A DNA stretch of 64,000 bases from a virus (Duplodnaviria; Caudoviricetes), in IMG/VR virus record IMGVR_UViG_3300021400_000154, positions 1 through 64,000 of that record; one strand, given 5' to 3'. Below are positions 4,790 through 64,000 of the stretch, in pieces. The translations under genes and the position numbers were made by a program. Position 1 is the stretch's first letter. Every line of letters begins with the position of its first letter. The notes beneath the pieces are model-generated. The model saw only the letters and a list, made by a program, of their open reading frames with translations. It ran no database searches and was not told the origin of the DNA.

Positions 4790-7627
4790 TTACTCGGCGC
4801 GACGTTTCAGTAACTTGTTTGCTTGTGTGATTTCCCGGCGCTTCTGGTTGTAGGCCTCGAAGTACTCCTTGTTGCGCTGCTCCGCGCACTCCTGACACCT
4901 GACCTGGCGCGAGTTGGTCCTCGGCGCCAGCTTGCCACAGTCCATGCAGCGGATGAAGCCGCGAGGAAGGCCTGTGCAGTCATGAGGCGAGGACCAGAGC
5001 GGAATGGACATGCCACACTCAGGACAGATCCTGCAGGCCACCAGGTTCTCCTCCAGCGTCTTGATGGCGATGTCGCCGAAGACGCGCCAGAACATCTGCT
5101 TATGGCTGGACTTGGCCACATTGCGCTCGGAGAACAGGGCATAGACCACCGCCGGGTAAACCTTCTCCAGGCTCCCATACTTCCCGATCAGGGTGCGCTT
5201 GATCTGGTCTGCGACAAAGTCGTAGCCAGCTCCGGCAACACGAACCGCAGAGTCGGACTGCTCGGACGTGTCGATAATGTTCGAGAAGTTGGTGTTGTCC
5301 ATGTCGAAGAACAGCTTGACCGCGTCCTCCATCTTGTCCTCCACCTCACCGGAGAGCATCATGCGGTAGTTAAACGGGGCCACACCAGCATAGTTCATGT
5401 TGATGTTCCCGATCCCGCTGAAGTAGTTGGCGAGGCGGTTCATGATGGAGTCATTGGGCTTCTTGCAGCGACGTTTCTTCTTGTTCTTCGTGTCCTGGTT
5501 GTGGCGACCGTTCCTGCTGTACTGGAAGAAGTACGGCATACGCCCGTTCTTTCCACCCACAGCGGCATTGATGCGCTTTGCTACCTCCGGGTACTTGTCG
5601 TACCCGTTGATGACAGGTAGCTTGGCTCCATCGATCACCTGATTGTTGTAGTAGCACAGCAGCTTGCCGGAATGGTAGTCAGGCTCGTCGGAGTTCCACA
5701 GCTTGCACAGGTTGTTGGACACCTGGCCGATGCCGGAAGAGTCGTGCGCACGAACCAGTCCGATGAAGATGTTCTCGCGGCTGATCGTCTCAGGCGGAAC
5801 CTCGTTCGCGTCATAGAACAGCGGCACGATGTCGTGCTCCCGGACATTGCGTTCTGCGACCGCTACAAAGACAGCGTTCACCACCACATTCAGCTGATCG
5901 CCGTCGCAGTCGAACTGCAAGATCCGACTGATCAGGTCATGAATGCTGGTATAGATACCGTTGGTGATAAACCAGCTGTAGACCTCGGAGGAGTGGCTGA
6001 TGTTGCGGACGGCATGCTCCATGAACAGGTGCGGAGAGCGAAGGCAATCGCACTTGTCATAGTTGCGGTAGACCTTGCAGGCAACCCAGCCATTCTCGAG
6101 CAGGCCTTTCGGATTCTTCTCGCCCAGAAACAGGTACTCGCAGAAGGCGTACAGGTCAGGAATTACGAAGAGCCGCTTGTTCTCGCAGATCAGGCGACCG
6201 GACTGTGCATCCTGGGTCCAGCGGCGCTTGATGGCCTTTAAGGTATCCTTGGAGAAGCCATCCCGCAGCAGCGGATCGTAGAGACACAGCGCCCGCTTGT
6301 AGGGCTGGTCCGAGAACTCGTCTGCCCGGAGCGTCCGAAGCATGGACGCCTTGTCGGTGGCGATGTTCTTGATCTTGTCCCAGGTGCGCTGGGCGAACTG
6401 CGCCATCTCTTCGTTGGTAAAGTCGGTCAGGGACTCAATGAACTGGTAGTTGACCGTTGTGTCCGGGACGAAGGCCTCCTCATAGTTGGTAAAAGAGATG
6501 CCCCAGCCGCACATCTTGGCGATGGTCTTGTACTCCTCCCAGGAAGCGTAGAACTTCCAGAGCTTGAACTGGGAAGCAGTCAGGATCATGGTGATATGCT
6601 CCTTAACCAGGTCATGCTTCTGACCCCAAGCATCCACCACCTCAGGCTTCACACCGTGAACCCTGCAGAACCGAAGGAAATCAAACGGGGACACGAGCCC
6701 CTTGATCCAGGCAGACCGGATCATCCGGTTGTCCTTGAACTCGGAAGGCAGGACCATGCCACAGCCGTCCGTGTGCTTGATCTCCACGGTCGCAACCTTG
6801 CGCTCCACCGTGTAGTCAGGGTTGATGTAGTCCAGCAGGTCGGTCACCAGCCCGGAGAAGTCCTTGACGACAACGATCTTGTCGAAAGAGAAGTCGGAAG
6901 GATCAGTAGCGCTGAAGTCCAGGGCGGTATAGGCCAGGTACTTGGACACGTTCAGTCCGCCCTTGGCGTTGATGGTGTCCCAGTCCAGTCCGCACTGGAT
7001 GTGTACGCGTAGCTGCTCCCATGCCGCATCCGAGAAGCAGCAGACCTTGTCGGTCCGAAGCTGGCCTGCGGATGCGGTTACCATGTCGTAGTGCCGCAGA
7101 TCAATGCTCCCGTCCTCCAGTTCAATGGGGATGTAGAATCCGTCCAGGACCACCTGATGGAGGACCTCCACGGACTTCCACTTCAGGATGACCTTGTCCA
7201 GGAACACCTGATCTTTCTGGATCCCCAGGAATCTGGATGCGTCAGAGCAGAACTCTGCAATCTTTCTGGATGCGCGAAGAGTGTTCCACGTGATACCAAG
7301 CTGCTGGATCGGCTCGCCGTTACAATCCTTCGGCAGCAGTCTGCTGTCTGTCACTCCGGCGACACGTACTGTCCTCGGCACTCCACGATGCTTCAGGATC
7401 AGTTCATCCAGCTGCACCTGAACGGATTTCTTCTCAGCCAGCAGTTCCGCTTTCCGTTCGGTGTTCTTCTTGGTGTTGTTCTTCTTCGCTTCGCTGTCCA
7501 ACCTGTCCATCTCAGCAATATACGCCATGATCTTCTCGTAGAGCGCATATTCATCGTCTGTGAACAGGTCGGTGGTTGTCAGCGTGATGAGCCGGTACTG
7601 CTGGCTCAAATAGCTCTTTTTAGACAT
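4790..7627 (-). CDS. single-subunit two-barrel RNA polymerase, YonO-like (RNAP-1)
   Basis: HTDGCG, IRSAWIKG, LRSPH, catalytic QFDCDGD (5897-5911), IDGAK; C-terminal CxxC Zn ribbons. Confidence 0.88.
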   Translation of the reverse strand: MSKKSYLSQQYRLITLTTTDLFTDDEYALYEKIMAYIAEMDRLDSEAKKNNTKKNTERKAELLAEKKSVQVQLDELILKHRGVPRTVRVAGVTDSRLLPKDCNGEPIQQLGITWNTLRASRKIAEFCSDASRFLGIQKDQVFLDKVILKWKSVEVLHQVVLDGFYIPIELEDGSIDLRHYDMVTASAGQLRTDKVCCFSDAAWEQLRVHIQCGLDWDTINAKGGLNVSKYLAYTALDFSATDPSDFSFDKIVVVKDFSGLVTDLLDYINPDYTVERKVATVEIKHTDGCGMVLPSEFKDNRMIRSAWIKGLVSPFDFLRFCRVHGVKPEVVDAWGQKHDLVKEHITMILTASQFKLWKFYASWEEYKTIAKMCGWGISFTNYEEAFVPDTTVNYQFIESLTDFTNEEMAQFAQRTWDKIKNIATDKASMLRTLRADEFSDQPYKRALCLYDPLLRDGFSKDTLKAIKRRWTQDAQSGRLICENKRLFVIPDLYAFCEYLFLGEKNPKGLLENGWVACKVYRNYDKCDCLRSPHLFMEHAVRNISHSSEVYSWFITNGIYTSIHDLISRILQFDCDGDQLNVVVNAVFVAVAERNVREHDIVPLFYDANEVPPETISRENIFIGLVRAHDSSGIGQVSNNLCKLWNSDEPDYHSGKLLCYYNNQVIDGAKLPVINGYDKYPEVAKRINAAVGGKNGRMPYFFQYSRNGRHNQDTKNKKKRRCKKPNDSIMNRLANYFSGIGNINMNYAGVAPFNYRMMLSGEVEDKMEDAVKLFFDMDNTNFSNIIDTSEQSDSAVRVAGAGYDFVADQIKRTLIGKYGSLEKVYPAVVYALFSERNVAKSSHKQMFWRVFGDIAIKTLEENLVACRICPECGMSIPLWSSPHDCTGLPRGFIRCMDCGKLAPRTNSRQVRCQECAEQRNKEYFEAYNQKRREITQANKLLKRRAE

Positions 7628-26460: not shown

Positions 26461-29400
26461 TTACTCAGCAGCCTCTTCTTCTTTCTCGAAACGCATCGCG
26501 GCCTTTTCTGCCAAGCCGCCGAAGATCATCCAGTAAGCTCTCCAGAGCTGATCACGCAGGAACTGGACTTTGGGATCGGCGTATTCGATATCGCACTTCG
26601 TGAACATGTAACATGTAATCACGTCATACGCATTGATCAGCGTCAGCCCAAACGATTCTGCGAACTCACTGATCTCGGACAGTGCCGCGACTCTCCAGTC
26701 GTCTTCAAAGGATGTGTCTTCCTGGTCCTTCCGGGTCTCATCTCTGGTCCAAAGCTGGCGATCCGTTTCGATCCTGCGGGCCAGGGCATTGAACAAACCT
26801 TCATCCGGACGGCACCAGGCACCATCAAGCATGATGGGGTTATTGCCCTTTCTGATCAGTCCCCACATACCACGCCGTCCCTCTTCGGGGTCGAACATCA
26901 GCATGTGGTAATCAAACTTACCCTCAGGCAGGTCGTAAATCTCGGTGGATCTGTCCAGCTTGTCGCTGTACAGCATGAACAACCGGTTAAGAGTAGACAC
27001 CATCAAGGTGCGATCTACTCCGTCCATGGAAGCGAGCTTTTCCAGCTCGTTTCTGGTCGCATGGCGAGCAACCGCATCTTTGTACAGTTTCGCCAAAGGC
27101 TGCACCATATTAGTAGCAGCTTGGCTTTCCCGAGGCTCGTTGAAGTCGGCTCCACCATGTTTGCTGGCATCCACCAGCACATTCGCGGCAAATACCTTGA
27201 AGTTGACGCCGCGCTCGCTGATTTCAACCAGTTCATAGTGGTATTCTCCAGTAACAGGGTCTTTAACTCTGTTGACCCTGTTCAGAAGGCCGTTCTCGTT
27301 GAACACGGTCAGTCCGAGCTGGTTCTTATGGGTCAGACCTCCAGCATAGACGAGCTCGTCTTCGCGGGAAACGATCTGTTTGTCAGTCTCTGGCGCTTCC
27401 CAAATGATGAGCCTGTTCCACCTGGCCAGCGTCTCTTTCGTCGCCTGGATCATACCTTTCTCGAAGGAGAACTTGACACCATCGCCGTCGAAATCCATGG
27501 CAAAGGCGCGGGAGGTGTCATCGTAGCAGTTGAAGTAGACGCAGTACGCCTGCGTCTTGAAGTATTTCTTGAACGCCGCTTTCGGAGCGACGTTCCGGAG
27601 GACCCTGTCGCTGTTGGGATGCACAACAGGGGACCTGGAGCAGGCGAATTCGCCGTACTGGAATCCAGGGATCCATGCTTCGCCGACTTCCAGACTGCCG
27701 GTCCGCTCCAGGCCGAACCATGCCTGGAAGACGTATACCGGATCGGGGAGCGCCTTCGCGTAGTAAGAGTTACGAAGAATCTTACCAGAGAAGGCGAGGT
27801 CGATGTCTTTCGTGAGTGATGTCACGAATCGTTCATTGATGGCCCGGACATTGAGGAACGTCGGAAGAATGCGGGCAATATGCCCGAGCTCACGCCCGAG
27901 CATTTTGCTGGCACCATCAACGGTGTGGGCACCGTTGATTCGCTTGATGGTCGGTTCAGCCATCAGCGCCAAAGACTCGTCTGATGCTTCCGTGAGTGTC
28001 TGGACAACCTGGTAAGAGGTGTCCTTCTTTTCCGGGGCATGGGCGCGTACGCATACACCAAGGTCGAACTCAGAGCGAACTGCGTCGCACCAAGCCTCAA
28101 ACGTGGTATACGCTCTGGTTGCGTTGCCGATGTTCGTCTTCAGGACGGTCTCGTCCATAAAGACGGAAATCTGGTCGATGGGACGACCATCGGGCATCGT
28201 ATGGATACCGTTTTCGTGAAGGAACCGATGAGCGGCGAAGTTCCGGTCGCAGCAGCTCTTAATCGCTGCGCCATTAGCCCGAATTGTGACCACCGAGTGA
28301 TCGGCCATAAAGGCTTCGATTCTTTCGGCCGCTTCTTCGGGATCAACGCCCTGCTGAATCAGCCGGTTCACGAACACAGGAACCATTTGTTCCGGAATTT
28401 CGATGCAGGAGTATCCGTCAGAGCGGATCTCGCTCTCTCGGTTGTTGTCCATCTGCTCCTCATGCCCGTCGAGGAACTCCTTCGTATGGTTGCCGACGAT
28501 CTCGGACCACACGGAAGGCATGATTGCACAATCCTCCGGAATGAAGGGGATCCCAAAGGACTTCCTGGGAACGGCCTGAAGGCCAACAAGGTAAGCAACT
28601 TTCTTCGCGACGGTCGTCAGCCATCCAGTGTTTGTATCTTTCAGAATCCATGTCCGCATTTCTGCGTAAATGGACTCTTTGACCCAGAGAGTTTTGCATT
28701 CCTTGGCGTTGTTGGTGCCATGGCCAAGGAACACGTACTTTGTTCCATTGATAACAAGACCGTTCATAACGGTCTGGCGCCACAGGTGTGCGGCGTCTTC
28801 CGCCATCTCCAGGCTCTCTATGTCTGTGGCTTTGGCATCCGGAATGATTGATGTGACGTGAACGATGGCGTTGTCCCCGCCGATGGCGATGGCTTTTGCC
28901 TCAACTGGAGACACGCCCTTGTTGATGCTATCAAAGTCGAACCCGTTTTTCTTCGGGTTCAAGGTCGCACGAATGAACGTGCGTGTACCATAAGCCCGAA
29001 TAGTGGGTTCAGCCTTGCAGATCGGCTCCAAGGCGTCGAGGATTTTGTAAGCTGTCTTTTCGCCAATACCCGGGATTTCCATCAAACGTTCAGTGTTCCG
29101 GCCAACAATGACCTTCTTCAGGTCGCTGACTCGGATCGCCAGAACGGCGGCGATCACAGCTTTCTTGAGGCCCTTGCAAGCCTCGAGCCTCGTCCTGGCA
29201 TTGTCTTTCCATTGCTCGGCGTTTTCGCGACGAACAAGGGTGTTCGTCCAGCCATGGTTCGCCAAGACGATACTTGGCGTACCTGCCGTTTTGATTTGTC
29301 TCGGCAGGTTGGGCTGCTTAGTGGCAATCTGCCGATAGGCCGAAAATCCTTCTTCAGCAGACTGGAAGACTTTGGATTTAATGGCCCCGTTCAGCTCATA

Positions 29401-29685
29401 CTGAACCATAACCGGAGTCTTTCTTGTGGCACTGCCACCGCTACCAATAGCGAGCAACATCGGGAGTGCCAGGATCCGCCCGGCACGGCGGGCCAGCATC
29501 CTGACCCTGTTGGTCTTGTTGATCTTCTTGACAGTGGGCTTGCCATAATAGGCATTGGCCCACTCGGCGATCTTGGTCTCGGTGGTCTGGGTGGCCACCT
29601 CGGTGGTGACGGTGGTGGTGTCCTTGGTCCAGCCAGCGCAGAACGCCAGCACAAGGGCCAGGATCAGGGCAAACAGCTTCTTCAT
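26461..29685 (-). CDS. second two-barrel RNA polymerase-like protein (RNAP-2) with hydrophobic N-terminus and HhH motif
   Basis: RSDGYS, IRANGAAIKS, SRSPVVHP, AMDFDGD (27481-27495), VDASKHG; HhH LMEIPGIGEKTA. Confidence 0.78.
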   Translation of the reverse strand: MKKLFALILALVLAFCAGWTKDTTTVTTEVATQTTETKIAEWANAYYGKPTVKKINKTNRVRMLARRAGRILALPMLLAIGSGGSATRKTPVMVQYELNGAIKSKVFQSAEEGFSAYRQIATKQPNLPRQIKTAGTPSIVLANHGWTNTLVRRENAEQWKDNARTRLEACKGLKKAVIAAVLAIRVSDLKKVIVGRNTERLMEIPGIGEKTAYKILDALEPICKAEPTIRAYGTRTFIRATLNPKKNGFDFDSINKGVSPVEAKAIAIGGDNAIVHVTSIIPDAKATDIESLEMAEDAAHLWRQTVMNGLVINGTKYVFLGHGTNNAKECKTLWVKESIYAEMRTWILKDTNTGWLTTVAKKVAYLVGLQAVPRKSFGIPFIPEDCAIMPSVWSEIVGNHTKEFLDGHEEQMDNNRESEIRSDGYSCIEIPEQMVPVFVNRLIQQGVDPEEAAERIEAFMADHSVVTIRANGAAIKSCCDRNFAAHRFLHENGIHTMPDGRPIDQISVFMDETVLKTNIGNATRAYTTFEAWCDAVRSEFDLGVCVRAHAPEKKDTSYQVVQTLTEASDESLALMAEPTIKRINGAHTVDGASKMLGRELGHIARILPTFLNVRAINERFVTSLTKDIDLAFSGKILRNSYYAKALPDPVYVFQAWFGLERTGSLEVGEAWIPGFQYGEFACSRSPVVHPNSDRVLRNVAPKAAFKKYFKTQAYCVYFNCYDDTSRAFAMDFDGDGVKFSFEKGMIQATKETLARWNRLIIWEAPETDKQIVSREDELVYAGGLTHKNQLGLTVFNENGLLNRVNRVKDPVTGEYHYELVEISERGVNFKVFAANVLVDASKHGGADFNEPRESQAATNMVQPLAKLYKDAVARHATRNELEKLASMDGVDRTLMVSTLNRLFMLYSDKLDRSTEIYDLPEGKFDYHMLMFDPEEGRRGMWGLIRKGNNPIMLDGAWCRPDEGLFNALARRIETDRQLWTRDETRKDQEDTSFEDDWRVAALSEISEFAESFGLTLINAYDVITCYMFTKCDIEYADPKVQFLRDQLWRAYWMIFGGLAEKAAMRFEKEEEAAE

Positions 29686-29961: not shown

Positions 29962-30132
29962 GGGTGATTCCTCCTTTCCTCTTGGCCTCTGCTGCAACAG
30001 AGGCCTTTTGATCGGCAAGACGCATGCCGGGATTGCTTTGCCTGGGCTACCAACCAGTCCACGTCTCACGACGTTGAGCGCATTTCACCAGACAGCATGT
30101 CTCACGACGTTCTGCCTGGTGTGGCCTGCAGA

Positions 30133-31829: not shown

Positions 31830-32001
31830 GGTGGTTCCTCCTTCTCCTGCATTTTGCAGGTCTCGATCCACTTGGGGCGTGCCGTTGTCGCCGTACCGGT
31901 TCCCACGAGTATCCGGCATAAGCGTGTGAGTTTACGCTCAAAAGCTGAGCAATCTCGCGTAAACTCATCATTAGTTCTTCTCCAAGTTCTCTCCCCAAAA
32001 A

Positions 32002-32028
32002 TCCGCAACCTCGAAAATGAACGTATTG
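32002..32028 (+). promoter_or_regulatory. 27-bp repeated motif copy 4 (candidate promoter of virion operon)
   Basis: TCCGCAACCTCGAAAATGAACGTATTG on plus strand at the strand switch. Confidence 0.7.
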
Positions 32029-32093
32029 GAAAGAAACGCAAAAAATGCGTCTCTTTTTCGCATTATATTTTCATAACAATCAGAGGTGATCTC

Positions 32094-47143: not shown

Positions 47144-47224
47144 CAATATGATTGACTACACGAAGTCTGTAGGGGGACAGCGTGTTTTCAATATATACAA
47201 AAATAAACCAAAGGAGTGTTGCAT

Positions 47225-48111: not shown

Positions 48112-48648
48112 ATGCCAGTTATGAACAAAGATCTCCCGGAAGCGAAGGAGAATAATAAAAAGCTTCCTACGAAACGTGCTCTGAAGAAGGACATCCCTGA
48201 CGAGGCTGAACTGGACAAAGAAATACCGGAAGCCTCGGAGCTCGACAAAGAAATGCCGGAAGCTTCTCCGCTTGATAAGCCTCAGCCTCCGCTTGTAGAC
48301 CCGGAGAACATTATCCGGGTTGGCGACCAGGACATTGAAATCAAGCCGACGAAGCTGTTGTACCAGCGGAACAAGACCGCTGCAGCTTACCGGATTCTTG
48401 ATGTGTACCCTCTGCCTGACATCCTTGCGATGGATAAAGGCATCCTCGACCCGGAACGTGATGGCGATGCGATCGTATTTGACTTCCTGACCGCCGTGTT
48501 CGACGACGGCAAGTTGGTGGCCAAGTATTACGACACGATGGACTCTGAAACCATTTATCGTGCGGTTCAGATCTTCAAGCGGCTGAACCATATAGACGAT
48601 AAGGAAGAGGCCTCAAAAAACCGGGCAGCCAAGGGGACGAGCAAATAA
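48112..48648 (+). CDS. tail assembly chaperone (gpG-like)
   Basis: between tube and tape measure; slippery A AAA AAC at 48615-48621. Confidence 0.7.
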   Translation: MPVMNKDLPEAKENNKKLPTKRALKKDIPDEAELDKEIPEASELDKEMPEASPLDKPQPPLVDPENIIRVGDQDIEIKPTKLLYQRNKTAAAYRILDVYPLPDILAMDKGILDPERDGDAIVFDFLTAVFDDGKLVAKYYDTMDSETIYRAVQIFKRLNHIDDKEEASKNRAAKGTSK

Positions 48649-48959
48649 GCCTTGACGAGGCTGTAGCGCTGGTTGCTGTCTACCTTGGCGAAGCTGATGA
48701 ATCGAAAATAAACGGAATGTCGATTCCGTTCTTCAATAATGTATTGGCGGCATTAGGCAAGCGCGTTAACTACGATGCCGTCGTGAACTATGCCGGTAAC
48801 TCTTTCGCGAAGGATTCATGGAAACTGATTCAAGAGGCGAACCCGTTGGTAAAGCCGAGGAAGATCAGTTCCGGTTTTATGGATCTGTTGAACAAGGCTG
48901 CGCCGAAGTCTGATGCTAAGACACAGCAGATGCTGAAAGAGATTGACTGGGCGAAATAA
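48615..48959 (+). CDS. -1 frameshift extension of chaperone (gpGT-like)
   Basis: -1 frame open from the slippery site into MSIPFFNNVL... Confidence 0.68.
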   Translation, partial: KKPGSQGDEQISLDEAVALVAVYLGEADESKINGMSIPFFNNVLAALGKRVNYDAVVNYAGNSFAKDSWKLIQEANPLVKPRKISSGFMDLLNKAAPKSDAKTQQMLKEIDWAK

Positions 48960-49627: not shown

Positions 49628-50455
49628 TTAATGCAAATACATGTAAAACAATATATCTGGGCCGAACGCATATTTATCTATGGCTATGTTTTGCGAAGGA
49701 ACGAATACTTTTTTTACTGGACTTTTGTAGAAACAAAATTTAGCAATCGATGTTATGCTCGGTGGCAAGATTACAGTATGTAAATTTTCAAAACCGCAAA
49801 ACGCCTCCTCTTCGATTGTAAGGATTCCATTTCCAATGATCAAACAGGACAATTGTTCTGCATGCCCGTTTGGATACCAGGAAGGAACTTTATCGTCTAT
49901 CAGCTCATAAAAATTAAAAGATCTTCTCCCTATCGTTGTAATGTCCGTGCCGTTAATCGTACTAGGGACACAGAGAATCTCTTCGCCTGATAAATCTCCG
50001 TAGGTCAACTTATTTCCTGTTACTTTCCAAAACGTAGTTATTGTGTTTCCGTTCAGCAACGTACCGTTTGCTTTATAAGCGAAATGTAAAAGCAAATCAG
50101 AATATGACATAGAAATCCTTTTAGCGTCATATATTAGCCTATCTGACAACTTGAAGTATAAGCGTATTCTATGAATGCCATTTACACAATTATGAGATAT
50201 TAAATGCGCAGTTTGCTCAGTTCGCCCATTGGAAAAACGAGACGCTGCATCTGCAGAAATGGTATGAAAAGCATTCATATCTATATCCCTTTGTTTGGTG
50301 ATCATGTATTCACCAAACAACATATGCTGATATTGGTTGTTGCTTTTACTCGTCGAAACAGTATATTGTAATAAAGCTATTTGTTTGTATTCGGCATCGC
50401 TTATTTCGACTTCTGCAACAACACATCCGTCAATCATGAAACAGTTAATCTTCAT
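49628..50455 (-). CDS. BspA/LRR_5-like repeat protein, moron-like
   Basis: ITTIGRRSF, ILTIEEEAFCGFENLHTVILPPSITSIAKFCF; AT-rich, antisense to virion operon. Confidence 0.7.
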   Translation of the reverse strand: MKINCFMIDGCVVAEVEISDAEYKQIALLQYTVSTSKSNNQYQHMLFGEYMITKQRDIDMNAFHTISADAASRFSNGRTEQTAHLISHNCVNGIHRIRLYFKLSDRLIYDAKRISMSYSDLLLHFAYKANGTLLNGNTITTFWKVTGNKLTYGDLSGEEILCVPSTINGTDITTIGRRSFNFYELIDDKVPSWYPNGHAEQLSCLIIGNGILTIEEEAFCGFENLHTVILPPSITSIAKFCFYKSPVKKVFVPSQNIAIDKYAFGPDILFYMYLH

Positions 50456-50477
50456 GATAACACCCCCCTTATGTGGT

Positions 50478-50506
50478 TATATAACATAAGTTTGCCTTAC
50501 TGTCAA
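50478..50506 (-). promoter_or_regulatory. sigma70/sigmaA-type promoter of the LRR gene
   Basis: TTGACA-17 bp-TATATA with TG extension on minus strand. Confidence 0.65.
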
Positions 50507-50529
50507 CACTTCGAAAAGGAGGTAATAAT

Positions 50530-53500
50530 ATGCCGAATGATCAAGTAGTACTTGATGTCGTTTTTCAGCCTCAAGTAGAAAGCCTGATTCAATAGTTGCA
50601 TCAGGCATCACAAATTGCGTCAGATGACGTTCAAACAATGCTTACCGAATCAATAACTCAAGCTGGATTATTGGCGAAAGAATCTGAAGGCTTTTAGTCT
50701 CAAAGTATGCCTCAGGAATATGTTCAAATGGCACAATCTTTAATGAATGCCATGAATAAACAAGTTCAAGACATCATCGCACAGCTTAATAAGGCATCGC
50801 AAGATGCAACTTCTTCTGGGTTTGAGGATGGTATTATCCAAAGAATAAAGACTACAATAGGTTCGCTTACTGCGAACATTATAGATCAAACTTTTTCAGT
50901 TGGCGCTATGAAAAATATTGTTGGTCAGATAGCACCTGATATGGCACAGTCTTTTGCCCAAAACTACAGAGATTACTATTTGCAAGCAAGTAGACTTATG
51001 GCAAGGCAAGCCAAAAACCCAGCAACAAACGGCGAATGGATGAAGTACCTTGATTTAGATTCTGGCTTTGCCGCTGGTCAAAGAGCTATGATGCAACATT
51101 TTGGGTTGTCAGAAGCTCAAATGAGACTGATGCAAGAATCAGTAGTGCGCAGCCAGCCAAATCAAATACGTATCGATTACGCCAGAAATGCTGTTCGATA
51201 TTCAGGTGGGGCCATGAAGAAAGTTGGCGTGATCCCACAATATATGACATATCAAGAACGGCTACCTGCTTTTTATCAGGGCTTAAGCAACCAACCACAA
51301 ACAACAACGTTGTCCCCTGATGAAAGGCAGGCTTTACAAGCAGAAGTAAGTGATGAGCAATGGAAAACAATCAGAAGTATAGCCGCTAGCAACCCTTCTT
51401 TTGAAAAAGCTCTTATTATGGCTGGATTAGCCCAAAGAACAGTCCATAACAAAGCGGCAGGTTAGTTAGTTATGCCACAAAAGCCAGTAAGTACTGAATT
51501 GGTTGCAAGAGCGATTGGCCATTTACATAGAGATATAATGATTCCTTAGCTCGAGGGAGCGCCATCTAATTACAGAAAAATCACATAGACATCTGGTGAG
51601 GATCAGATGGCAATGGCAAATGCAGATTAGAAAACAGTGTTAGATATTATCGATGCGTTTCATAAACTTGCTCCATTGGGTATTTCTCCCGTATATGGTG
51701 ATGCTGTTACACGCCCATATAATCCACAGACTGGCGTTTCGCGTGTACGAGGTGCGAAATCTACTGCAGCTCCAGAAAGATATCAGATTATGAGTTTAAC
51801 ATGGGATGATTTCCAAAAAGGAGTTATGCTTGATCCACATGGCCCTGTTCAAAGCGAATATGAAGAAGGCGCAAGGGGCACATCGACAAACAAGATGATT
51901 CTTGAATCGGGTTTCACAAGAATGCTCGGCATGCATGGTAACAACACGTTCGGTAATGGAAGCAAAACAGATAATAGTTCGCCTTCTATAATACAAATTG
52001 ACTTGTAGGATCGATTATTAAAGAAACGTAAAGACGGAGAGTTAGAATGGGAAAATGGACACGTTGTTCAAGATGAAGATACTGCGAAGCTAATCGAGCG
52101 TATATTTACTATTCCGCAAGGCCATTCTCACCCGAGAGTTCAGTTTGGCCAAACTGGTATTCATTATGTTCCTACTAATGTGAAGAATGGCGTGATTACT
52201 CTTGGACGGGAAGATGCTGTTGAAAGTGCAATCAGCGATTCTATAAGACTGACAGGGCATAATGTGCTCGCTAATATGGTTGACCCGAATACTGTGTTCT
52301 AGACATATACTGATTTGAATAAACAAATCGAGGCATACAACAGAGACTTAACTCCGTCTGTGCCTATTGAAAGAATGGGCGGAAAGCTTCCTGATAAAAA
52401 TAGAATCGCATTTGTTGATCTGTCTTCGTTTACAGGGAAAAAAGATAGTAAGACTGGCCGTAATGACTATCACGATGGTTCATCCTTTTTTATGCCTGGC
52501 TTTATTCCAGGTGGCAATGCAACATACAGAATCGCCGGACAAAAGGGCACAGCTCAAACAGTTGATTTCCGTGCAATGATTAGAGATTTATACGGCGATG
52601 TTGATCATTTTTATTTGCCTGCATTGAATGCTCCGAAAGAATACAAAGATGCATTTAACCAGCATGGTATTGAAAAAGTTAGAGAAATGATGCAACAACG
52701 AGGAGAGTTGTAGAAATTCGAAGAATATTTCCTTGATGCGTTACAGTTTGATGCGCTTATATAGGACTCAGTCATTAAATCGCCTGCGTACAAAGGCTTG
52801 ACGAACGCACAGGCGCAAGATCTTTTTTATAAAACAAAAGAAACCCCTATGGGTATGGGCATTGTACAAACAGCAAGCCAGTTTTTGACAAAAGGGAAAC
52901 TTTCTCTTGGCAGACAGTTATCTCAGCATTTAGACTTAACACCAGAGCAGATAGCAGAAAACAGAGAGTTGTGGGAGAACTATATAAATATGCTCAGATA
53001 TAGGCCAGAAGAGACTGCAAAGAGGTTGTTTTCAAATCCTAACAATTCTTTGGATTCTAAGATAATGGCTAACCCTGGATTAATGTGGGATGACCCAGAA
53101 GCAAGGTAGATTGTGCTAAACGAAATATCTAAAGCTATGATTTCTATGGCGAACGGAGAATTGTTTTAGGATGGATTATCGCCTTCTGCTCTGGCCGCAG
53201 CGAACCCAGCAAAGATATTAATGGATGCAGCCAGCAGAAATGGCCTTAAGATACAGAATCCATTACTTGCGCGAAGGCTTACACTTGGAACTGGTAAACT
53301 TGCTGCAGGATTCTTGGATGATGACGAGATAGCAGTTGGAAGATGGCCAATGACACCTGGAGAACAATATAGTGCCCAACTATAGAAAGATTACTTGGAG
53401 GCTGGAAGAAAGTACGGGCTCGCAGATGACGTTTTTTATACTGATGCCGGATTTATCGGAGCAATGGGAGGCGGAGATGTCGACGGCGACACGATCCAGG

Positions 53501-56500
53501 CATTAAGAGGAAGACTTCGTGATTATGTAAAAAACACAATAACTGCAAGAGCTGGTAAAACCGGGCAACGTGATGCGTCTTTAATACCAGAACCTTTGCC
53601 AGCAAATCAAAAAATAGGGCCAAGAGTTTTTGCAGATCAAATGTTCAGAGCTGCTCAGCAGCAGATCGAATTAGGAATGGTCTCTAGAGCTCAAGACGCT
53701 TTATCCCAACTTCCTTGGATTGACCCAGAAATAGTTAGACAATATGGGCAAGCGAATGCAGACTTAGCCATGCAATATGACGTAGATTCGACTTTTTTGA
53801 AGACAGGCGTATTGGCGAACTGGACTCAGGCCTCAAAAAATGCAAGGTATTTAGGCAGACCTTTCAGTCATGTATATAAAGACCTTGTTGGAGCTATCCA
53901 AGAAGGAGATTATTCGAAAATAAGAAAAATGTAGGAGTTGAACTTTCCAAGTCGGTATCATGCTTTGACGGCTTAGATGATGGAAAGTTTATACCAGAAT
54001 CCAATAAGTAACACAGCTATTGACAAAATGATTGCTGCTCAAGAAGATTTAGAAGGAATACCTCAGCTTGAACAAGGAGAGCTATATCAACGAAGTCAAG
54101 CCGCGTTCTTAAGAGAAAACATACGAGTGATGTAGCAATTACTCTCTTCAAGAGCTGGTTTTGTTTCAACCGAAGATTTTGAAAACCTTGGAGCAAAAGC
54201 AAAAAAGTGGCAAGCTGACGTCCAAACAGAGCTTGCTCGACCTGGCATAGACGAAAAAAGAAAGAAAGTTCTTTTGGAGAATTTGGGACTTGCACAACAG
54301 CAACAATACCGTTTAGATCGCTTAAGACAGTTCGGTGTTATTGAAGGAGCTACAGACGGTTATGTTAGCTTGTTTAAAAACACTAGAGGCACTTCTGGAT
54401 AGTCTGTTTTTAGTGTTGCGCAACAGCAAGCCACGGATGCAGAAGCAGCTGAGGTTGCGGCAAGAGTTGGCGCCAATCCAACAATGATAGCAGCGATGAG
54501 AACTGCTGCGGAGAATGCGCAAATCGCTGACGCTAAACGAAAAGCCGAGAGCGCGAGATATAGTTTCTCTCAGTTGGCTCTGTTGGATAAAAGCCCTGAA
54601 GAATGGTTTAATCGGTACATAGCTAAATCAAGCGAAACAGAAATGACGCCAGCAATACATATTGGCAACGTTGTTGATAAACTTACGACAGAATGGGGTT
54701 ACAGGAGACTAGCTGAACAAAAAGGGCAAGGAAAAATGCTTACTCCTGATGAGTTTGAAAAAATGTTTGTTGCCTTGTTTACAGGAAACTTTGATCCATC
54801 TTCTTTTATAAGCGGTTTTGACGAGCGCGAACGCAATAAGTTTACAGATGCGGCGAAAAGGCTTGGTTTTCAAAATGGAATGGAACATCCATCTGACAGA
54901 TATAGAAATGCTTTAGCATATGTTAGAGCGATGCCTTTCATGTTGCCAGATGAGGAAATATTGGAATGGGATGATAATGGAGAGAAAAAACCATCTGTTC
55001 AAGTACGCGTTCGCCCTGATTTCGGAACAACTCCTTCGGGAAGCAGGGTAAATAGTATTGGTTTTGTAGACTTGATCACGAGAAATAAACATACAGGTCA
55101 GATTACAGAATGGGACACAAAAGCAAATAGCGACCAAGAAGGACGTACTGGAGGCATCAATCAAGTATATTCTTATAGTACAGATCCTGCCTTCCAGCCT
55201 TCTCATATTGGAATCTTAGCGTACAATGATCCTGAACACACGGTAACACAGCTTCCTTTTTCTAAAGAAAGACAAGATGAAGTCCGAGCTATGACTAGGG
55301 ATATTCTTGCTCAACGTTTTTTAATCGCTGAGCATGGAGACAGTTGGGATTTTATTCGGAATCAGTTCTATCCAGGAATGAACGAAGCAGCAGAACGCAC
55401 GCAAACTGAAGCCGAACATCAACAAAGTAGATCTTTTATGGAACAAGGAACTGGAATGGCAATGGCCAAAGCAATGACGTTGCAAAATGATATCACAGAA
55501 TATGAACAACGCATGCAACAAATAACACAACAACTACAAAATGGATTAAGGCGTAGAAGCGGGGATCAAACAGATAATCCTTGGGAGTCTTTTGATGCGC
55601 AGTTGAATGCTTCATTTGATGCAAGAAGACGACAGTTGGTAAAAAGGGGAGCCAACAAAGAAGATTTGGTAGGTTTAGACGAAGAGAGAAGAAAAGCTGC
55701 GGAAATGTTCGACAAAGCTTTAATGGAAGCGGCCGGTGGAGAAAAATCCGATATCGTTCAAACAATAAACGCGCTAAATGATTAGTTCGCTAAGCGACGG
55801 TCTGATTCCGGTTTGACAACTTACATTCAGGAATTTGAGGGCATTGAAAAGGCAGTTAAATAGGCTACTATGGCGTTTGACGTGTTTGAACAAAAGATGG
55901 CAAAAAAGAAGAACTTGTCGCAGAAAGATCAAGAAGCTCTCGACCGTGGAAGACAGCAAAGAGAAGAGCTTACTGGTTTGGCAGACATACAAAGGCGCGC
56001 TATATAGGAAGAGGCAAAACGGAAAGCATTGTCGCAAATAGAAGATTTTGCAATAGATCAAGGTACCATGGAAATGACTCCAGAAATAAGAATGCAGCGT
56101 ATCAAACAAAAAAGGGCAGAAGAACTGATGCGTACTCAGTTAGCCATAGGAGAGTTAAAAGATAAAGGCCTTTTATCGGAAAAAGATTTCGAATCAATGT
56201 CTAGCAGTATTACTGATATGCTTGGCGATCAATAGCTGGGTGCTTTTGCTGCGCGCGCTGAACGAATCCGACTTGGATTAGAAACAAAAACGCCTGAACA
56301 AATGAGTCAGGAGCGTTTGAGAGATATTCGAGCAGCGATTGCAGCATAGGTTGAATCTGGAGGAGACAGTCCTGAAGTTGCCGCAGCAAGAGAAAGAAAA
56401 CGTGCAGCTGATAAAGCTTTGGAACAAGCACAACAACAAGCTGCGGAAGCGCAACAGGCAGCGGGTGGTAAAACAGTTACAGCTGAAGATGTAGCGGCGG

Positions 56501-59500
56501 CAAATGCTACAGTAGTATCAGCAAAGTCCAGACTTAAACAGTTGCAATAGGAAAGAGATCGAATAAGTACAGATATACAAACCCGCACATCTGCTCTTAC
56601 AGGAACTCAGGCTGAACAAAAAGCTCGTCGAGATGCTCTTCAGTAGGCATATGGCGAAGCGAAATCAGCCTATGAGCAAGTTGTAGCTGCCCGCCCTGCA
56701 GACGGAAGTAAGGCTCTCGAGGAGAAAAAGGCAGCTTTGCAGGCAGATTTAGAAAAGCGAAAGAAGATTGGTACTCCGGAGCAAGCGGAAGAAGCTTTAG
56801 CGCGAGAAAAAGCAGAATTAGAGAGACTTACTGCAGCAAGCGGAACTGCATAGCAATCTCTGAAACAAGCCCGCGCAAGCCAAACAATAATGGATCAAAG
56901 AAAGGAACAGCAGGATATTATTACAGCTGCGACAAAGGATTTAGAAAAACTCAAGCCAGATCAGGAAAGAATAACAGAGGCACACACTAAAGCTAAGGCA
57001 GCCAGAGCTGCTGAAAAAATACATAAATTACAACCCCAACTTGGTGGGAAAACCCCGGAAGAAATCTTGCAAGAAGAAGAAGACGCCAAAAAGGAACTTG
57101 AACAGGCTCAGAAAGAAAAACAAAGAGCAGAGCATGATGCAACTGCTTATTGGGGTAGCCGAAAGAGGAAGGGTTTGAGTCAACAAGGCGACTTTAAGGC
57201 AATACGTGGAGAGCTTTTAGATCACCTTAGTAAACTCAGTCCCACAGAGCTGAAAGACCTTGGGTTTATATAGCTTGCACCTGATAAAATGGACGAGGAT
57301 GCATTGGCCTCTACCCTCAAATACAACGCTGGTGCTTTTTCTAGATCTCGCGACACATCCCTTTCAGGACTTGCAGCTTAGTTTGTTGAAGCCTGGAAAG
57401 CGGAGAAAGATTTCCGACCGATTTCAGGAAGAGTAGAGGAAGCACAAGGGAGAGCCGCAACAGCTCAAGCAGCAGTAAAAGGACTTGAACAAAAGGCCGA
57501 AGCAGCAAGGAAAATACAAGATCTTTTGCGTGATACTCCTGGAGCTAAAGAAATGCTGTCAAAAACAGACGAAGAACTCGCCGGCTTTAAAGAAGCGGAA
57601 GATGCTCAGAGCGTATCCGAGAAATAGCAAGCAGCACAACAAAAGATAAGCGCAGCTTTGCAAGAGTTAGCTAAACTTCCTGAACCTAAAGAAGTTGATG
57701 TCAAAGGGAAACAACAAGAAGCTGCCGAAGCGGCTGGAGCAGTGGATGCTCAAAAATTGAAGGTTGAAGCAGCAGAACAAAGATTAAAAGACGCTAGAGA
57801 ACTGGACACACGAATCAGAAGTTTTCCCACTCTGACAGAGCTAGAGGAACAAATCGAAGCCGAAGGGCAAAAGCAGACCGATGCTGCCGAAGCAGAACGC
57901 AAAGCAAAAGAAAGAATGGATCAAGCACAAGAAGCGTTAACTGCAGCTACGCCACAAGACACTACAACAGCTCAATCAGAGATCGCAAGCTTGAAACAAC
58001 AGCAAGCCCAAAACCAAACGCAGATAGAAGCTCAACAGGCAGTAGTAGCACAGGCGGAAGCAAACCTTGCGGCAACAAATGCTGCTGCTCAAAACCCTGA
58101 TGAACGGATAGCCAATGCGAATGCAGCTGTTGAGAATGCGCAAAATGAAGCAAACCAAGCAGCCCAGGATCTGGAAGACGCAATAAAGAAACAGGATTCC
58201 ACTGCGAATCAAAGTATTGACGAGCAAATGAAACCCCATGTTGAAAGAGAAAACCAAAAGCTTGAAAGAATCCGTCGGAAAAGCGAGCGCGCCAGAGAAG
58301 ATTTCAGGCGTATGCTTACCGGCGAAACATTGACTCCAGAGGAAAGAGCTGCCAGGTCTGAAGAAGACATTAAATTCGCGCTTCAGGAAGCAAGAGACAA
58401 AATGTATGAAGATGGCAATCAAGATTGGCAAAAGCTTGATGAGATCCTTGGCAATGATAGTATGTGGGCATAGTTCAGGCAGCGTACTTAGCAACAGGAA
58501 AAGACCATGGACCAGCTTGCTCAGAACGATCTCGAGCGTACTGCTCAAGACCTGCAGAACAGAATAACCGGACACATGGAAACGAAGGAAGAAATGGAGA
58601 ACAGAGCGATCCAGACGTTCAGGGATCAAATCATTCAGAAGCGTGATGCAGCGAAGAAGAAAGGATTGGATACTTAGGCTTATGACAGGATGCTTGAGAA
58701 GGATGAGAATGGACAAGAACAGCTCAGAGGCGATTTACAGGGTGCCATCAAGGAGCAAACGGATTTACAGAGACAACAACAGATCGCTCAGCGGAGAATG
58801 CAGAATCTCGGTATTCTCAGGCGCGTATCTGGTTTCACAAGCACGACAGATGCCGCTGCTCAATATGAAGCTCAGAAGCAACAGGACCGTATTGCTTTTA
58901 AGAATGCAAGAGACAAAGCTGAAAATACAGCGGAAGCAGAACGCACAGAGCAAGATCGTGCTCTCCTGGCGATGACCGAAAAGGATTGGGAACGGCAATA
59001 CGACGAGCAGAATCTTGGAATGCAAGGGCTTGGTACAAGGGACGCTGCGAGAAAAAAAGCACAAGACGATTACCGCAATAATAAGGGTTATATTCAAGAA
59101 ATCCAAAACAGCGCCTTGTAGGATACAGAAAAGGCAGCAAGACTTGCAAGATTTTCCAGGTATCTGGGACAAGACAGACAGCTTATTTCCGAGGAAGATT
59201 ATGTCAATCAGGAACTGTAGTTATTTGATGAAAGAGCTGATATAGCAAGAAGAAATGCTTTGCAAGGTATAGATCAAGCGGCTGATGCTTCTATGCAATA
59301 CAGGTTAGGAAAGCTTTCTAGTGGGCGGCGTGCGTTAACTAGCTTTGGTATGACGTCGCAAATGGAGCTTTCAAGGCGTTTATCAGCTTTCAATCAATCT
59401 GCTGCCGCGCGCAGGAGTAGCGTCTCTTTATCTTCAAAAATCAAAGAAACAGAGACAGAGCTCGCCTCGCTCACAGATGCAGACAAAGAAAAAAGAGCTA

Positions 59501-62500
59501 CTCTTGAAGCCAGGCTACAAGCTTTGCGCGATCAACAATCATTAGCTGATACGCAGTCTGAAGAAGCAGAGCAGAGAGCTCTCGGAAAAAACAAAAAGTA
59601 TCAAGCCGCAAGAGGAAAATACGATCTCGCAAGACAAGCTTACGATGCCGCGTTGAAAAACAATGATTCTGATTAGATGGCAAACGCAGCACAAGGTATG
59701 CGCGACGCCGAATAGGAAATGCAAAGAATCGCGGCAACATCTATAAGCGCGCGAGCTTCCCTCTCTGCTCTTGGGCAAACGTTTGCTAGGGTTGGCATGC
59801 AGTTCGGAAGGCGCATATTCCAGGCAGCCATTCGTGAAGCGACTCAGTTTGTCAAAGTATATGATCAAACCATGCATCAGATTCAAGCCATAACCATGAA
59901 ATCCAACCAGGAGATGGCTACAGTCAGATCTTCTACGATAACTCAAGCTATAGGTTTAAAAACCTCTGCGACAAACGTTGCACAGGTCAAATCAGAGTTA
60001 TATCGGCAAGGGTTATCTGATTCGCAAGTTAATGACAGAACTGATTCGATTATAAAGTTTTCTGCTGTCACAGGGATGAAGGCAACGCAAGCAACAAAAG
60101 CTCTCACTACGGCGTTGCAAAGCGGACTTGTTAATAATATTCATGAGGCAATGGACGCGATGGTCGCTCTGGGCGATAGCGCAGCAACGACAGCTGAAGA
60201 AATAGCAAAAGGTATGCAAAAATCTGCTGCGGCTGCAAAAGTTGCAGGCGTGTCTTACGGTGAACTGACATCCATGTTAACAGTTATCACCAGCAAAACT
60301 CAGCTTGGCGGCAATCAAGCAGGCACAGCGCTTCAAACGATATTCAGCCGGATGCGCAGAGTAACAAACGAAGGTATAACCAGTGATGAAGGCGGAGAAA
60401 TCACAAGCGTCAATGATGTCGAAGAATCTCTTCAACGTGTTGGCATTTCTATGAGAACAGACGCTAACAGTTTCAGAGATACGTTGGATATCCTTCGCGA
60501 TCTTGCAAAAGTTTGGAATGATTTGAATGACATACAGAAGAACAATATCATGTATAATATGGCTGGCGCAAGACAGAGCAATATGTTCTCTGCTTTAATG
60601 GAAGGATTGGCTGATGATAATGGTAAGACATTTGATAAATATCTTGGGCTTACTGAGGATAGTGATGGGATAACTCAGAGCAAATACGAAATCGTAATAT
60701 CAAACATCAATGCAGAACTCGACGAACTGAAAACCACATTCGACGGGCTTGTAGAAGCAGTCACAAACAATGGATTGTTAACGTTCTTCATCGACCTCGC
60801 AACAACCATTACTGGTTTTGTCGCAGGAGTTTCCGATGGATTAGGAGCTATCCCTTAGCTTCTCTGGGCTATTGCTGCTGTGTTAGACGTGGTGAAGATT
60901 AAAAGCGCTGCAGTGGCCGTATTCAAAGGATTGGCGAATCCTGCTACGTTAATAGGGCCGATTTTAGGCCTTCTGGCTGTTGCAGGAGTAGGCGCTTTGG
61001 GATCACACATAAGTGGATCAAGAAAAGCAACAGAACAAAATACTGAACTGAAACGACAAGCCGATTCTGACTTTCTAGAACATGCATCCAGTGTTCGTAC
61101 GGATAGCATAGAAAAAGTGGAAAAAGCACTTGACAAAGTAAAGCAAATGCAAAAGATAGATGTCGATATGGAAACAGAAGAAGCCCAAAAAGCGCTGGAA
61201 GATCTCAAAAGAAGCACAAAGGCGATAGGTGGCAATATCTCTGATTGGCCAAATGCCGTAAGAGAGGCTACAAAAGCTATAAATGAAGCGAGAAAAGAAA
61301 GTGCACTATTTTTACTCGGACTTGGGGATACTGGGGCAAAGGATCTCCAGACAAAATATAATAATAATGTTTAGACATATAATGGTGCCATCTAGTAGTC
61401 TGATTTTGAAGACGGCGGTATATTATATGGCAGATCAATTTTCCAGGGTATATCTCAAAAGGACTTAAAACCTTACTCAACACAAGACGGTAAAGGCGGC
61501 TATACTTACGAAAGCTTGATAAATGATCATTAGAAACTTGACATGAAAGCGCCTCGTAAATCTATGACTTATAGAGATGCGATGAAACAAGATTTAGAAA
61601 ACATTGGTATAAAGACAGAGGGGCTGTAGGACACAGACTTGATCGATTTGCACGGTGTATACTATTACAGTGGCCTTTCCCAAAACTTTAGGCGCGTTAA
61701 ATACAACAAGAATGCAGGCAATCAAAATCGTGATAACCAGGAATATGCTTACGAATTTTTTAAACAGCTTTCTGACAACACAAATCAGCAAAATATAACC
61801 ACTTCATCATTGAAACGTGTAGAATCATGGTTTGATCTGTGGACTAAAACAGCAGGATATGAAAACTTTATGAATGCTCATGGTGGACATATAGGTTCAT
61901 ATACAGCAGGTGGTTCCTTTGAAGACTTTGCATCTGTTATGGCAAAACAACAATACGAAGGAGTTAGAAATGAAGTTATTGGGTTATGGGATTAGGACGA
62001 AACAAGAAACGAAATCGCAACAAGAGCTGCTGAAGAAAATGAAATTCTGTCTAATATGGACAGCTTGTTCGTTCAGTCGCTTATGACTAACGATGATGCA
62101 TATGGGCCAGCTGTAAAACTTTGGACTTAGGGTAACGAAAAGTTTAAGGATCGCATTGTTTCCGAATTTCTTGATTACGCAAAGGACCAAGGTATTACGC
62201 CGAATTATACAAATGTTAAAGAGTGGCTAATGAAACAAATTGAAACTTATACTTCTGATGAATTCCTGCGGATGTATGGGTCTCCCGAAGACTTTGAGTA
62301 TTATTATTCAGATTCAGAAGGCAATCCATTGTTTGGTGCGCATGATTTATAGCGAGAAGCAATCCTTGAGGCGTACAACGAAGAAGTTGCGCTTGCCGAG
62401 AAAAACGGTAACACCAAACGGGTTGAGGTACTTAAAGCGCTGCAAGAAGAAGTAAGTAAGTATAATCCTTTGAAGACAAACAAAATATATACGTCATCAG

Positions 62501-64000
62501 GGGCGCAAGTTGGCGGTACTATTGGAAGTATTTTCGGAAGCACGAATCTTTCTTCTAAAGACTTGGGATACAGAACTGAATACGCACAACTGCTTGCGAT
62601 GGCTAACGGAGTAACAGACTATGACGCATTTAAAAATACAGAAGGATACACGACATTGACGGCTCTCGCGCAAAACGATACTGCTCTGACGACTTTAATG
62701 CAAGATGCTAATACCGGACGAGCTGGCCTTGCTGATATTATTGACTATCTTGAGAAAAAAGTCTATGGCGAAAACTATATACAAACAACAGCGTCTTCAG
62801 GTAGGGCCATATCTGAAAATAGACTTGATATTGCAGCGCTTAAAGATGAAACTAGTCCTTTGCCTGCTTCTGTTGCCAAGCGCGTCGCAAGCGCGATTAA
62901 TCAAAACGAATCGTATGTTTATCAAAATAGACAGGCCGCTGCAGCTATGCTTGAGTAGACTACCGATCAAAACCAACGTGGTCTTGAGACAAAAGCTCGT
63001 GGATGGATAAGCGATCTATATCGGTTTGCGTAGAGAGAAGATATGCTTAAGGACTTAAGAAAGAACTATTAGAAAATGTCTGACGAAGAAATAGCAACGA
63101 TGTATGGGAGCTGGGGCATTACAAACAGATCGATGGCTGCGGCTGTTTCCAATAACAGTAAAGTCCTTAGTTCTGATTAGGAAGCAATGAATTATATCCA
63201 AGCTCTTGCTGCCCAGCTTCCTGGATTTGAATATGATAAGCAAACTGGCGGAATCAAGTTTACAGGTATGGATGTAAAAGGTTATGAAGATGTTTTGTCT
63301 TTTGCTCCCGTTATAACAAATCATGATGTAAGAGACCTTGCTGAGACAATGTTGAATGGTGCGGAAGGGAAAACGTGGAACGATTTTGTTAATAAAGCCA
63401 ATCAAGATATAGCAAGACAGTTAATGCAGCAAAATCCTGAACTGTTCACGTATATGACGATGACTGATGCTCAACGAAGAACAGAGGAAGGACAAGCCGC
63501 ATATTATACTGCAAGACAGCAACTTCTTACGTCTGAACTCCAAACGCTTGAAAAAATCGGGCAAATCCTTCCAGAGGCCACTCAAGTTGCACAACAACTT
63601 TCGAGCGGATCTTATGGAGATCAGATTGCAGGCATTAGTGGTTTTGGGTCTATGGTGCAAAGCTATGGTTAGATAGTTGCTCTTAGGCAGAAAATATCTT
63701 AGATGACAAACTTAAGCGATGAAGAATGGAAATAGCAAGGCGGAGAAGCCTACGTCAACAAGCTAGCCACGATGTTAGGATTGGATCCTTAGCTTTTTGA
63801 CAAGAGTAATGTTGACGAACTGCTTGAGCAGGGCAAAAAGAAAGCAGACAAAATATCTAACGGTTTGCAACAAATTATTGAATCTGTATTCGACATAGAT
63901 TTATCCAACTACGACAATCTGGAAGGCGTTATCGCTAAGCTCGAAGAAAGCGGAGACGCGTTATCAAGCTTTTTTGCCATACTATTAAGATCCCTTTCTG
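50530..64000 (+). CDS. giant protein (>4400 aa, truncated by window): two-barrel RNAP domain + PD-(D/E)xK nuclease domain + coiled coil + tape-measure domain; about 50 in-frame TAG
   Basis: AAAGGAGG RBS; all long ORF fragments from 50707 to 63672 share one frame and are separated only by TAG; GGGDVDGD at 53467-53490; TP901-like TMP block at 59719-60858. Confidence 0.85.

Follow-up and report, generated by a model that had tools for sequence, protein, structure and literature searches.

Results

The reading frame at the tape measure locus

The stretch analyzed here, referred to as the window, covers the first 64 kb (64,000 nucleotides, nt) of the uncultured virus record IMGVR_UViG_3300021400_000154, and the element in question is a giant tape measure protein (TMP) gene that begins at window position 50530, runs off the end of the window, and encodes near its front a predicted RNA polymerase (RNAP). 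The record is 110,614 bp long with a 107-bp terminal overlap and thus represents a complete genome assembled as a circle. When TAG is taken as sense, 4,490 codons, 52 of them TAG, are open between the ATG at 50530 and the end of the window, and in the complete genome the gene continues for another 2,969 nt to give a frame of 5,479 codons with 57 in-frame TAG, no TAA, and one TGA, which is the stop. Base composition predicts 248 TAA or TGA codons in this frame (probability of none ~1e-110), and the remaining two frames of the plus strand contain 201 and 363 of them. The original prediction, made from the window alone, held that a series of RNAP motifs and a tape-measure block share one frame. 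The complete sequence agrees, with all eight motifs present in the claimed order, the block ALGDSAATTAEE...GNQAGTALQTIFSR in the same frame and within PF10145, and neither TAA, TGA, nor a frameshift between the two parts. Translation of 50530-64000 with table 11 yields short open reading frames (ORFs) only, in more than 50 pieces of which the longest has 433 amino acids (aa), and the warning that standard annotation would miss the gene proved well founded, since a 433-aa piece of this same gene (P0035) stands in the database. The G+C content is 40-46% over the giant gene (window 50001-64000) as against ~54% in the early and head region.

Table 1. Features of the giant gene, its neighborhood, and the other polymerase genes. 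Positions are those of the window unless given as genome positions.
Feature	Position	Strand	Evidence
Giant tape measure gene	50530..64000 in window, to genome 66969	+	Frame, PF10145, TMP PHROGs, Dit/Tal downstream
N-terminal region, aa 1-415	50530..51774	+	Conserved from ~aa 200, 33-35% identity to homologues
Predicted single-chain two-barrel RNAP domain, QDE-1/RDR/YonO type, aa ~416-1160	51775..54009	+	AlphaFold2, Foldseek, VIA-align, hhalign
Beta-like barrel region with near-invariant R667, K672 (YRIAGQKG), and K750 (DSVIK)	52405..52779	+	Alignment A1; YonO-family alignment
Beta-prime-like double-psi beta-barrel, aa 883-1004, R938-x-P940 and metal-binding DVDGD	53176..53541	+	Alignment A2; VIA-align
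Predicted PD-(D/E)XK nuclease domain (Cas4/RecB/AddB-like), aa ~1342-1620	54553..55389	+	PF12705, AlphaFold2, Foldseek
Low-complexity helical (coiled-coil-like) spacer of ~1,250 aa, aa ~1750-3000	55777..59529	+	Composition, alignment
Tape measure core PF10145 (PhageMin_Tail), aa 3143-3346	59956..60567	+	E 9.1e-26
Three hydrophobic (membrane) segments, aa 3416-3496	60775..61017	+	Kyte-Doolittle scan
Candidate tail assembly chaperone pair, -1 frameshift	48112..48956	+	Sequence only
Dit gene (Sipho_tail)	Genome 67030-68220		Downstream of giant
Tal gene (Prophage_tail, YOMG_N; YomG-like)	Genome 68233-73641		Downstream of Dit
Stand-alone YonO orthologue, 945 aa, DCDGD, no TAG inside	4790..7627	-	33% identity to SPbeta YonO, phrog_8308
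Second stand-alone YonO-like RNAP paralogue, DFDGD, ORF 26461-30069	26461..29685 from probable start	-	phrog_8308 1.1e-22
38-nt motif copies	2669-2706(-), 7805-7842(-), 19835-19872(-), 31998-32035(+); genome 94303-94340(-), 99354-99391(-)

The polymerase domain

An AlphaFold2 model of aa 401-1400, built with an alignment of 25 homologues (A1), reached a predicted local distance difference test score (pLDDT) of 83 and a predicted template modeling score of 0.76, and the pair of double-psi beta-barrels (DPBBs) is present in it. Every Foldseek match below E 1e-3 was QDE-1 or RDR2 (best E 1.4e-10, to QDE-1); the next-ranked were the polymerases of Thermus phages, P74 gp62, P32 gp64, and P23-45 gp96, and then the crAss-like gp66 (E 0.07). 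VIA-align superposed RDR2 on model residues 16-759 with Z 19.5 over 511 residues at a root mean square deviation of 3.7 A, followed by QDE-1 at Z ~18, P74 gp62 and P32 gp64 at ~14, and P23-45 gp96 at 11.3. Beta-prime subunits and isolated DPBB proteins match model residues 475-700 at Z 8-9, with the isolated DPBBs falling on 483-604 at Z 8-8.7. In the best matches, QDE-1 (2J7N) and plant RDR2 (7ROZ, 7W82), ~500-530 residues superpose, a region that includes the two barrels as well as the helices that follow the catalytic one; the two enzymes differ in showing 9-14% sequence identity, in being cellular RNA-silencing enzymes that work on single-stranded templates, and in not being virion proteins. 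On the model, the front of the giant is a complete single-chain two-barrel RNAP of the YonO/QDE-1 branch, with catalysis predicted.

The motifs run in the order HDGSS (aa 647-651, nt 52468), YRIAGQKG, LI(TAG)DSVIK, NGELF, VGRWP, GGGDVDGD (DVDGD at aa 983-987, nt 53476-53490), LGMVS, and DSTFLKTG (nt 53785-53808). Residues R667, K672, G673, K750, R938, P940, E945, G980, D983, D985, G986, and D987 are at least 90% conserved in A1, whose columns are converted to residues of the giant by adding 400 (R267, K272, G273, and K350 become R667, K672, G673, and K750). In a smaller alignment (A2) the R-x-P and GGGDxDGD motifs are invariant (columns R538, P540, G580-G582, D583, D585, G586, and D587). The basic residues R667, K672, and K750 align with the arginine and lysine positions of IRSAWIKG and SQFK in the YonO orthologue family. 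Identity to homologues is 36-48% in the polymerase part, one of the most strongly conserved portions of the chain, versus less than 10% in the spacer.

The eight motifs had been proposed to correspond to those of the stand-alone RNAPs encoded in the same window, and hhalign of the domain family against the family of the 945-aa stand-alone enzyme pairs each one of them (Prob 92.6, E 4.4e-7, 381 columns). The giant of one relative also matches phrog_8308 directly (E 2.4e-8). The relation to the stand-alone enzymes is visible by profiles only, since BLASTP of aa 401-1400 against both of them gave nothing below E 0.98. Pfam and PHROGs searches of the giant returned no polymerase family, and neither phmmer nor a family profile gave a match to the polymerase domain among PDB sequences. 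By profile comparison, the domain is a distant member of the YonO family.

Homologues and the reality of the fusion

An exhaustive phmmer search with the polymerase part over 1.84 billion representatives recovered 54 proteins. About 22 of these (clusters counted at 50% identity) are giants of 3,899-5,923 aa in which the match always lies at residues ~400-1450, and the others are fragments; no stand-alone close relative or split form was found among the representatives. One apparent stand-alone relative of 937 aa (P0046) was rejected as a table 11 fragment of a 4,528-codon frame that is broken only by five TAG. Eight IMG/VR contigs carry the fusion gene. In three relatives the fused gene contains no stop at all under table 11 (L001, 4,991 aa; L006, 3,899 aa; L007, 4,807 aa), and the fusion is therefore no artefact of recoding; a fourth (L017) has the same frame with five TAG only, and a fifth (L005) is recoded. 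The number of TAG codons in the giant gene thus differs among relatives, from none in three and five in L017 to 57 here. Neither the polymerase part nor the C-terminal 699 aa had a tblastn match in 50,697 deposited phage records, GTDB genome contigs yielded no relative when scanned, and a search of the literature for YonO and tape measure in combination turned up no account of such a fusion.

TAG as a serine codon

On the sequence evidence, TAG is read as serine in the late genes. A reading as glutamine has to be given up: a tRNA with a CUA anticodon at genome c[91017-91103] (87 nt as called) has a long variable arm, is serine-like, and stands 1 nt from a tRNA-Ser(UGA) of equal length and similar acceptor stem, and tRNA-Gln retains its UUG anticodon. 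The columns of the 11 TAG positions in aa 401-1400 in a 26-sequence alignment agree, with homologue frequencies of S 0.35, A 0.12, and T 0.09 that match those of true serine columns (S 0.35, A 0.12, T 0.07); true glutamine columns have Q 0.24, and glutamine accounts for 7 of 245 residues at the TAG columns. TAG was therefore translated as S in later analyses.

The codon does not occur in DnaE, NrdD, or either of the stand-alone polymerase genes but does occur in the portal, capsid, tube, Dit, and Tal genes. Within the window, TAG codons occur throughout 30296-64000. The genome uses two codes, with minus-strand replication and polymerase genes free of TAG and plus-strand virion genes using it as sense. 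The primase-helicase ORF appears to stop at a TAG near 360. A literature search for a TAG-to-serine phage code found no description of one.

The remainder of the chain

Behind the polymerase lies a domain with the nuclease motifs YSFSQL, GFVDL, D-x-K, and Q-x-x-x-Y. PF12705 is found in eight of the nine members of this nuclease family (best E 4.6e-15), and on the giant itself it scores 18.7 bits, below the 22-bit cutoff; D185, D200, K202, and Y220 are invariant in the nuclease alignment. The AlphaFold2 model (pLDDT 84) matches ACE1 of the Cas4 family, AdnA, Dna2, and AddB in Foldseek at E 1.6e-4 to 7e-3. The whole 5,479-aa chain is without cysteine and so cannot hold the four-cysteine iron-sulfur cluster of Cas4, which means that, strictly speaking, the domain is no Cas4. 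As for other chains, giant homologues have 0-2 cysteines and the 5,002-aa P23-45 gp96 has none (L016:8288-23296). Lack of cysteine may mark proteins that pass through the tail in an unfolded state.

The spacer is composed to 48-56% of E, K, Q, R, and A, and the spacers of homologues are not alignable. In addition to PF10145, five TMP PHROGs match the giant. The C-terminal part comprises ~2,000 residues, the final 700 of which are conserved again. A Pfam search of the giant found no metallopeptidase domain.

Gene context, stand-alone polymerases, and an upstream motif

Upstream of the giant lie genes for portal, major head protein, and two tube-like proteins (46229-47992), followed by the candidate chaperone pair, in which the ORF 48112-48648 contains the heptamer A_AAA_AAC at 48615-48621 and the -1 frame is open to 48956; the pair has no family match. 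The tape-measure position after a frameshifting chaperone that was originally proposed holds as regards the slot, given that Dit and Tal follow, but not as regards direct adjacency, as small ORFs and a minus-strand gene intervene. The latter, a BspA-type leucine-rich-repeat gene at window 49628-50455(-), is directly upstream of the tape measure gene, and a relative (L005) has the same arrangement (8977-9921). Relatives share the gene order and add YonB, YomW, YomX, and YomU-type genes. The DnaE-type polymerase, the YonO orthologue, and the Tal/Yom-type gene set mark the virus, by its sequence, as an uncultured SPbeta-like long-tailed phage. DNA sequencing runs containing its sequence are animal or bovine gut metagenomes, and the best of them may be the sample from which the record came; no RNA sequencing runs containing it are listed.

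Two stand-alone RNAPs with a DxDGD motif had been claimed for the window, and both were confirmed (Table 1). The 945-aa protein is 33% identical to SPbeta YonO over 86% of its length (E 4e-107), matches phrog_8308 at 1e-157, and reaches the cutoff of the Pfam family RdRP PF05183. The second has no TAG from its probable start at 29685. The stretch MKKLFALILALVLAFCAG that follows this start resembles a lipoprotein signal, which is odd for a polymerase, and the long ORF 26461-30069(-) contains an HhH motif at aa 324-347. At least two phrog_8308 genes besides the giant occur in all five of the relatives' records examined.

A non-palindromic 38-nt motif (consensus AAAATCCGCAACCTCGAAAATGAACGTAATGGAAAGAA) occurs in exactly six copies in the genome at up to six mismatches, with no further copies up to 11 mismatches in the genome and none in shuffled sequence. 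All six stand 10-180 nt upstream of a gene start, in the orientation of that gene, and head the primase operon, the YonO orthologue, a unit at 19.8 kb, the plus-strand late block (31998), the tRNA array that includes the suppressor tRNA, and a unit at 99.4 kb. Two syntenic copies are present in the closest relative (L019); they retain the 3' half, and the 5' half that they have in common is a different one. One of the phage polymerases may use the motif as a promoter.

Elsewhere in the window, paralogous amidoligase-like genes stand side by side at 9372-10961(-) and 11018-12814(-) (phrog_16683, E 1e-64 to 1e-71), and in one relative (L018) a similar Amidoligase_2 gene adjoins the YonO orthologue. 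Short direct repeats based on ACTTAAG, in three to six copies with ~31-nt spacing, occupy an intergenic low-GC stretch at 19127-19232 and may constitute an operator or origin.

Discussion

To our knowledge, a TMP-fused, injected RNAP has been proven so far only in an unrelated Thermus phage. The principle of a TMP-fused virion RNAP is already published, and the finding here is not a first. The P23-45 protein gp96 is an active two-barrel RNAP that is present in virions within the full-length TMP, uses defined promoters, and transcribes pre-early genes including that of a second, non-virion RNAP (PMC10770324). Chaban et al. (2024, Nat Commun 15:317) propose that gp96 acts at the TMP pore as DNA enters, with transcription coupled to translocation (PMC10770324). 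Like the giant described here, gp96 (also in P74-26, G20c, and TSP4) is a very long TMP (5,002 aa) whose N-terminal fifth contains a single-chain two-barrel RNAP. Its DFDGD motif is at 779-783, where DVDGD stands at 983-987 here; membrane segments lie further along the chain, cysteine is absent, and the same phage has a separate gene for a non-virion two-barrel RNAP.

However, gp96 and the giant have no BLASTP match, and hhalign aligns only 21 columns around DxDGD (E 0.02). The domain here is far closer in structure to RDR2, QDE-1, and YonO (Z 18-19.5) than to gp96 (Z 11.3), and gp96 itself clusters with its own partner gp64 (PMC10770324). The giant also adds a PD-(D/E)XK nuclease and is accompanied by two partner polymerases rather than one, and its setting is an SPbeta-type phage of a gut anaerobe in which TAG encodes serine; its function is deduced, whereas that of gp96 was demonstrated. 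The giant would act like gp96 but is outside the gp96 protein family. Given that the domain groups with QDE-1, RDR2, and YonO, that gp96 groups with gp64, and that sequence similarity between the two is lacking, we infer that this fusion and that of gp96 arose independently.

Other systems share individual properties with the giant. The SPbeta YonO is a processive DNA-dependent RNAP that transcribes late genes only (Forrest et al. 2017; PMC5467207), and it belongs to the same RNAP branch as the domain of the giant but is a free enzyme that is not part of the virion. Virion RNAPs of the crAss-like phage phi14:2 and of N4 are contained within very large proteins in the particle and are ejected to start transcription (PMC10770324). 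The phi14:2 gp66 (6VR4) is two-barrel like the domain here, with the weak structural match noted above. Both phages are short-tailed and without a tape measure, unlike the present phage, and the N4 virion enzyme is T7-like, not two-barrel.

By analogy with gp96, the phage probably injects its own transcription enzyme. The original reading of an RNAP fused to the tape measure is supported to the extent that sequence and structure allow, and we consider it reasonably probable that the giant is a TMP with a YonO-type RNAP and a nuclease that is carried in the tail, delivered, and put to transcribing the first genes. The proteolytic release that had been proposed is not required, in that the gp96 RNAP stays part of the full-length TMP in virions. 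Under such a mechanism the giant would be made late, as its 57 TAG codons need the phage suppressor tRNA-Ser(CUA), and would be packed in the tail lumen in a non-native, metastable, extended state. At infection it would be expelled with its C-terminus at the tip end first, the membrane segments helping to form a conduit, and the N-terminal polymerase would exit last, beside the leading DNA end and together with the nuclease. The polymerase would then transcribe the first genes without host RNAP, and these plausibly include the two stand-alone polymerase genes, whose products would take over. These genes are free of TAG and hence translatable in a naive cell, and the trio of polymerases kept in all five relatives examined fits such a relay.

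Several considerations weigh against this delivery of an active polymerase by the tail. A folded polymerase-nuclease module exceeding 100 kDa is too large for the lumen of a tail tube, which measures a few nm, and this raises the question of the form and location in which the virion holds it, as it does for gp96. A full-length product demands near-complete suppression at 57 TAG codons. The missing sequence relation to gp96 makes the analogy a functional and not an evolutionary one, and the support consists of sequence and models for the phage and its family, with function argued from gp96. Finally, SPbeta manages without a virion polymerase and uses YonO only late (PMC5467207), and an injected enzyme is therefore no obvious necessity.

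It might be expected from the size of the module that the polymerase and nuclease are translated with the TMP but cleaved off at tail assembly, or that they act solely within the cell that makes the particles, for example in transcribing late genes or processing DNA, and are never delivered. Some TMPs are known to be proteolytically processed, and the long, non-conserved spacer does part the enzymes from the TMP core. Yet the P23-45 RNAP is found in virions inside full-size gp96, the genome already encodes two stand-alone polymerases for use within the cell, the fusion is retained in ~22 clusters with no split form found, and the near-absence of cysteine, as in gp96, suits unfolded travel; we regard a module that stays behind as unlikely. 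A domain that is delivered for another main job, whether pulling in the genome by transcription, priming replication, or copying single-stranded templates in the manner of QDE-1, is suggested by the templates of its nearest structures, QDE-1 and RDR2, and by the proposal of transcription-coupled DNA translocation (Chaban et al. 2024; PMC10770324). The nearest sequence family, however, is that of YonO, which transcribes DNA processively (PMC5467207), and gp96 starts from defined promoters, such that another main job seems quite unlikely.

Because catalysis is here read from sequence and model, the domain could in principle be a catalytically dead relic that serves as structural plug or spacer. 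This is hard to reconcile with the conservation at 90% or more of the three aspartates, the R-x-P, and the basic residues among homologues that are 30-55% identical overall, or with the fact that few parts of the chain are as well conserved as this domain, and we hold it to be very improbable. The breakage of the frame into more than 50 pieces under table 11 might also suggest an artefact, either of genes run together across genuine TAG stops or of a chimeric assembly. The three relatives whose fused gene is stop-free under that table refute this; the match of TAG to serine columns (S 0.35 and A 0.12 in both) and an encoded serine-type tRNA(CUA) also speak against it, and the same architecture recurs in independent samples; the chance of such an artefact is practically negligible.

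Delivery by the tail thus remains the favored reading, and from it a broader scenario can be sketched, which we offer tentatively and hold to be rather doubtful as a whole. An SPbeta-like gut phage TMP would have captured a YonO-type enzyme and a Cas4/RecB-like nuclease in a second, independent origin of a TMP-fused virion RNAP, and the resulting injected two-enzyme pilot would head a three-polymerase relay that frees the phage from host RNAP, maybe driven from the six-copy 38-nt motif.

If the reading is true, the fusion of an RNAP to the tail ruler would be a recurrent solution, reached from another polymerase lineage and beyond a few Thermus phages, and it would be common in uncultured animal-gut phages (~22 clusters and eight IMG/VR contigs). 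The injected cargo would gain a nuclease. Such proteins are under-counted, since annotation under the standard code shreds the gene. The finding also sharpens a physical question, namely how a tail tube can store, and let through, enzymes exceeding 100 kDa. The family would in addition be a source of compact single-chain DNA-dependent RNAPs, whose promoters may be simple.

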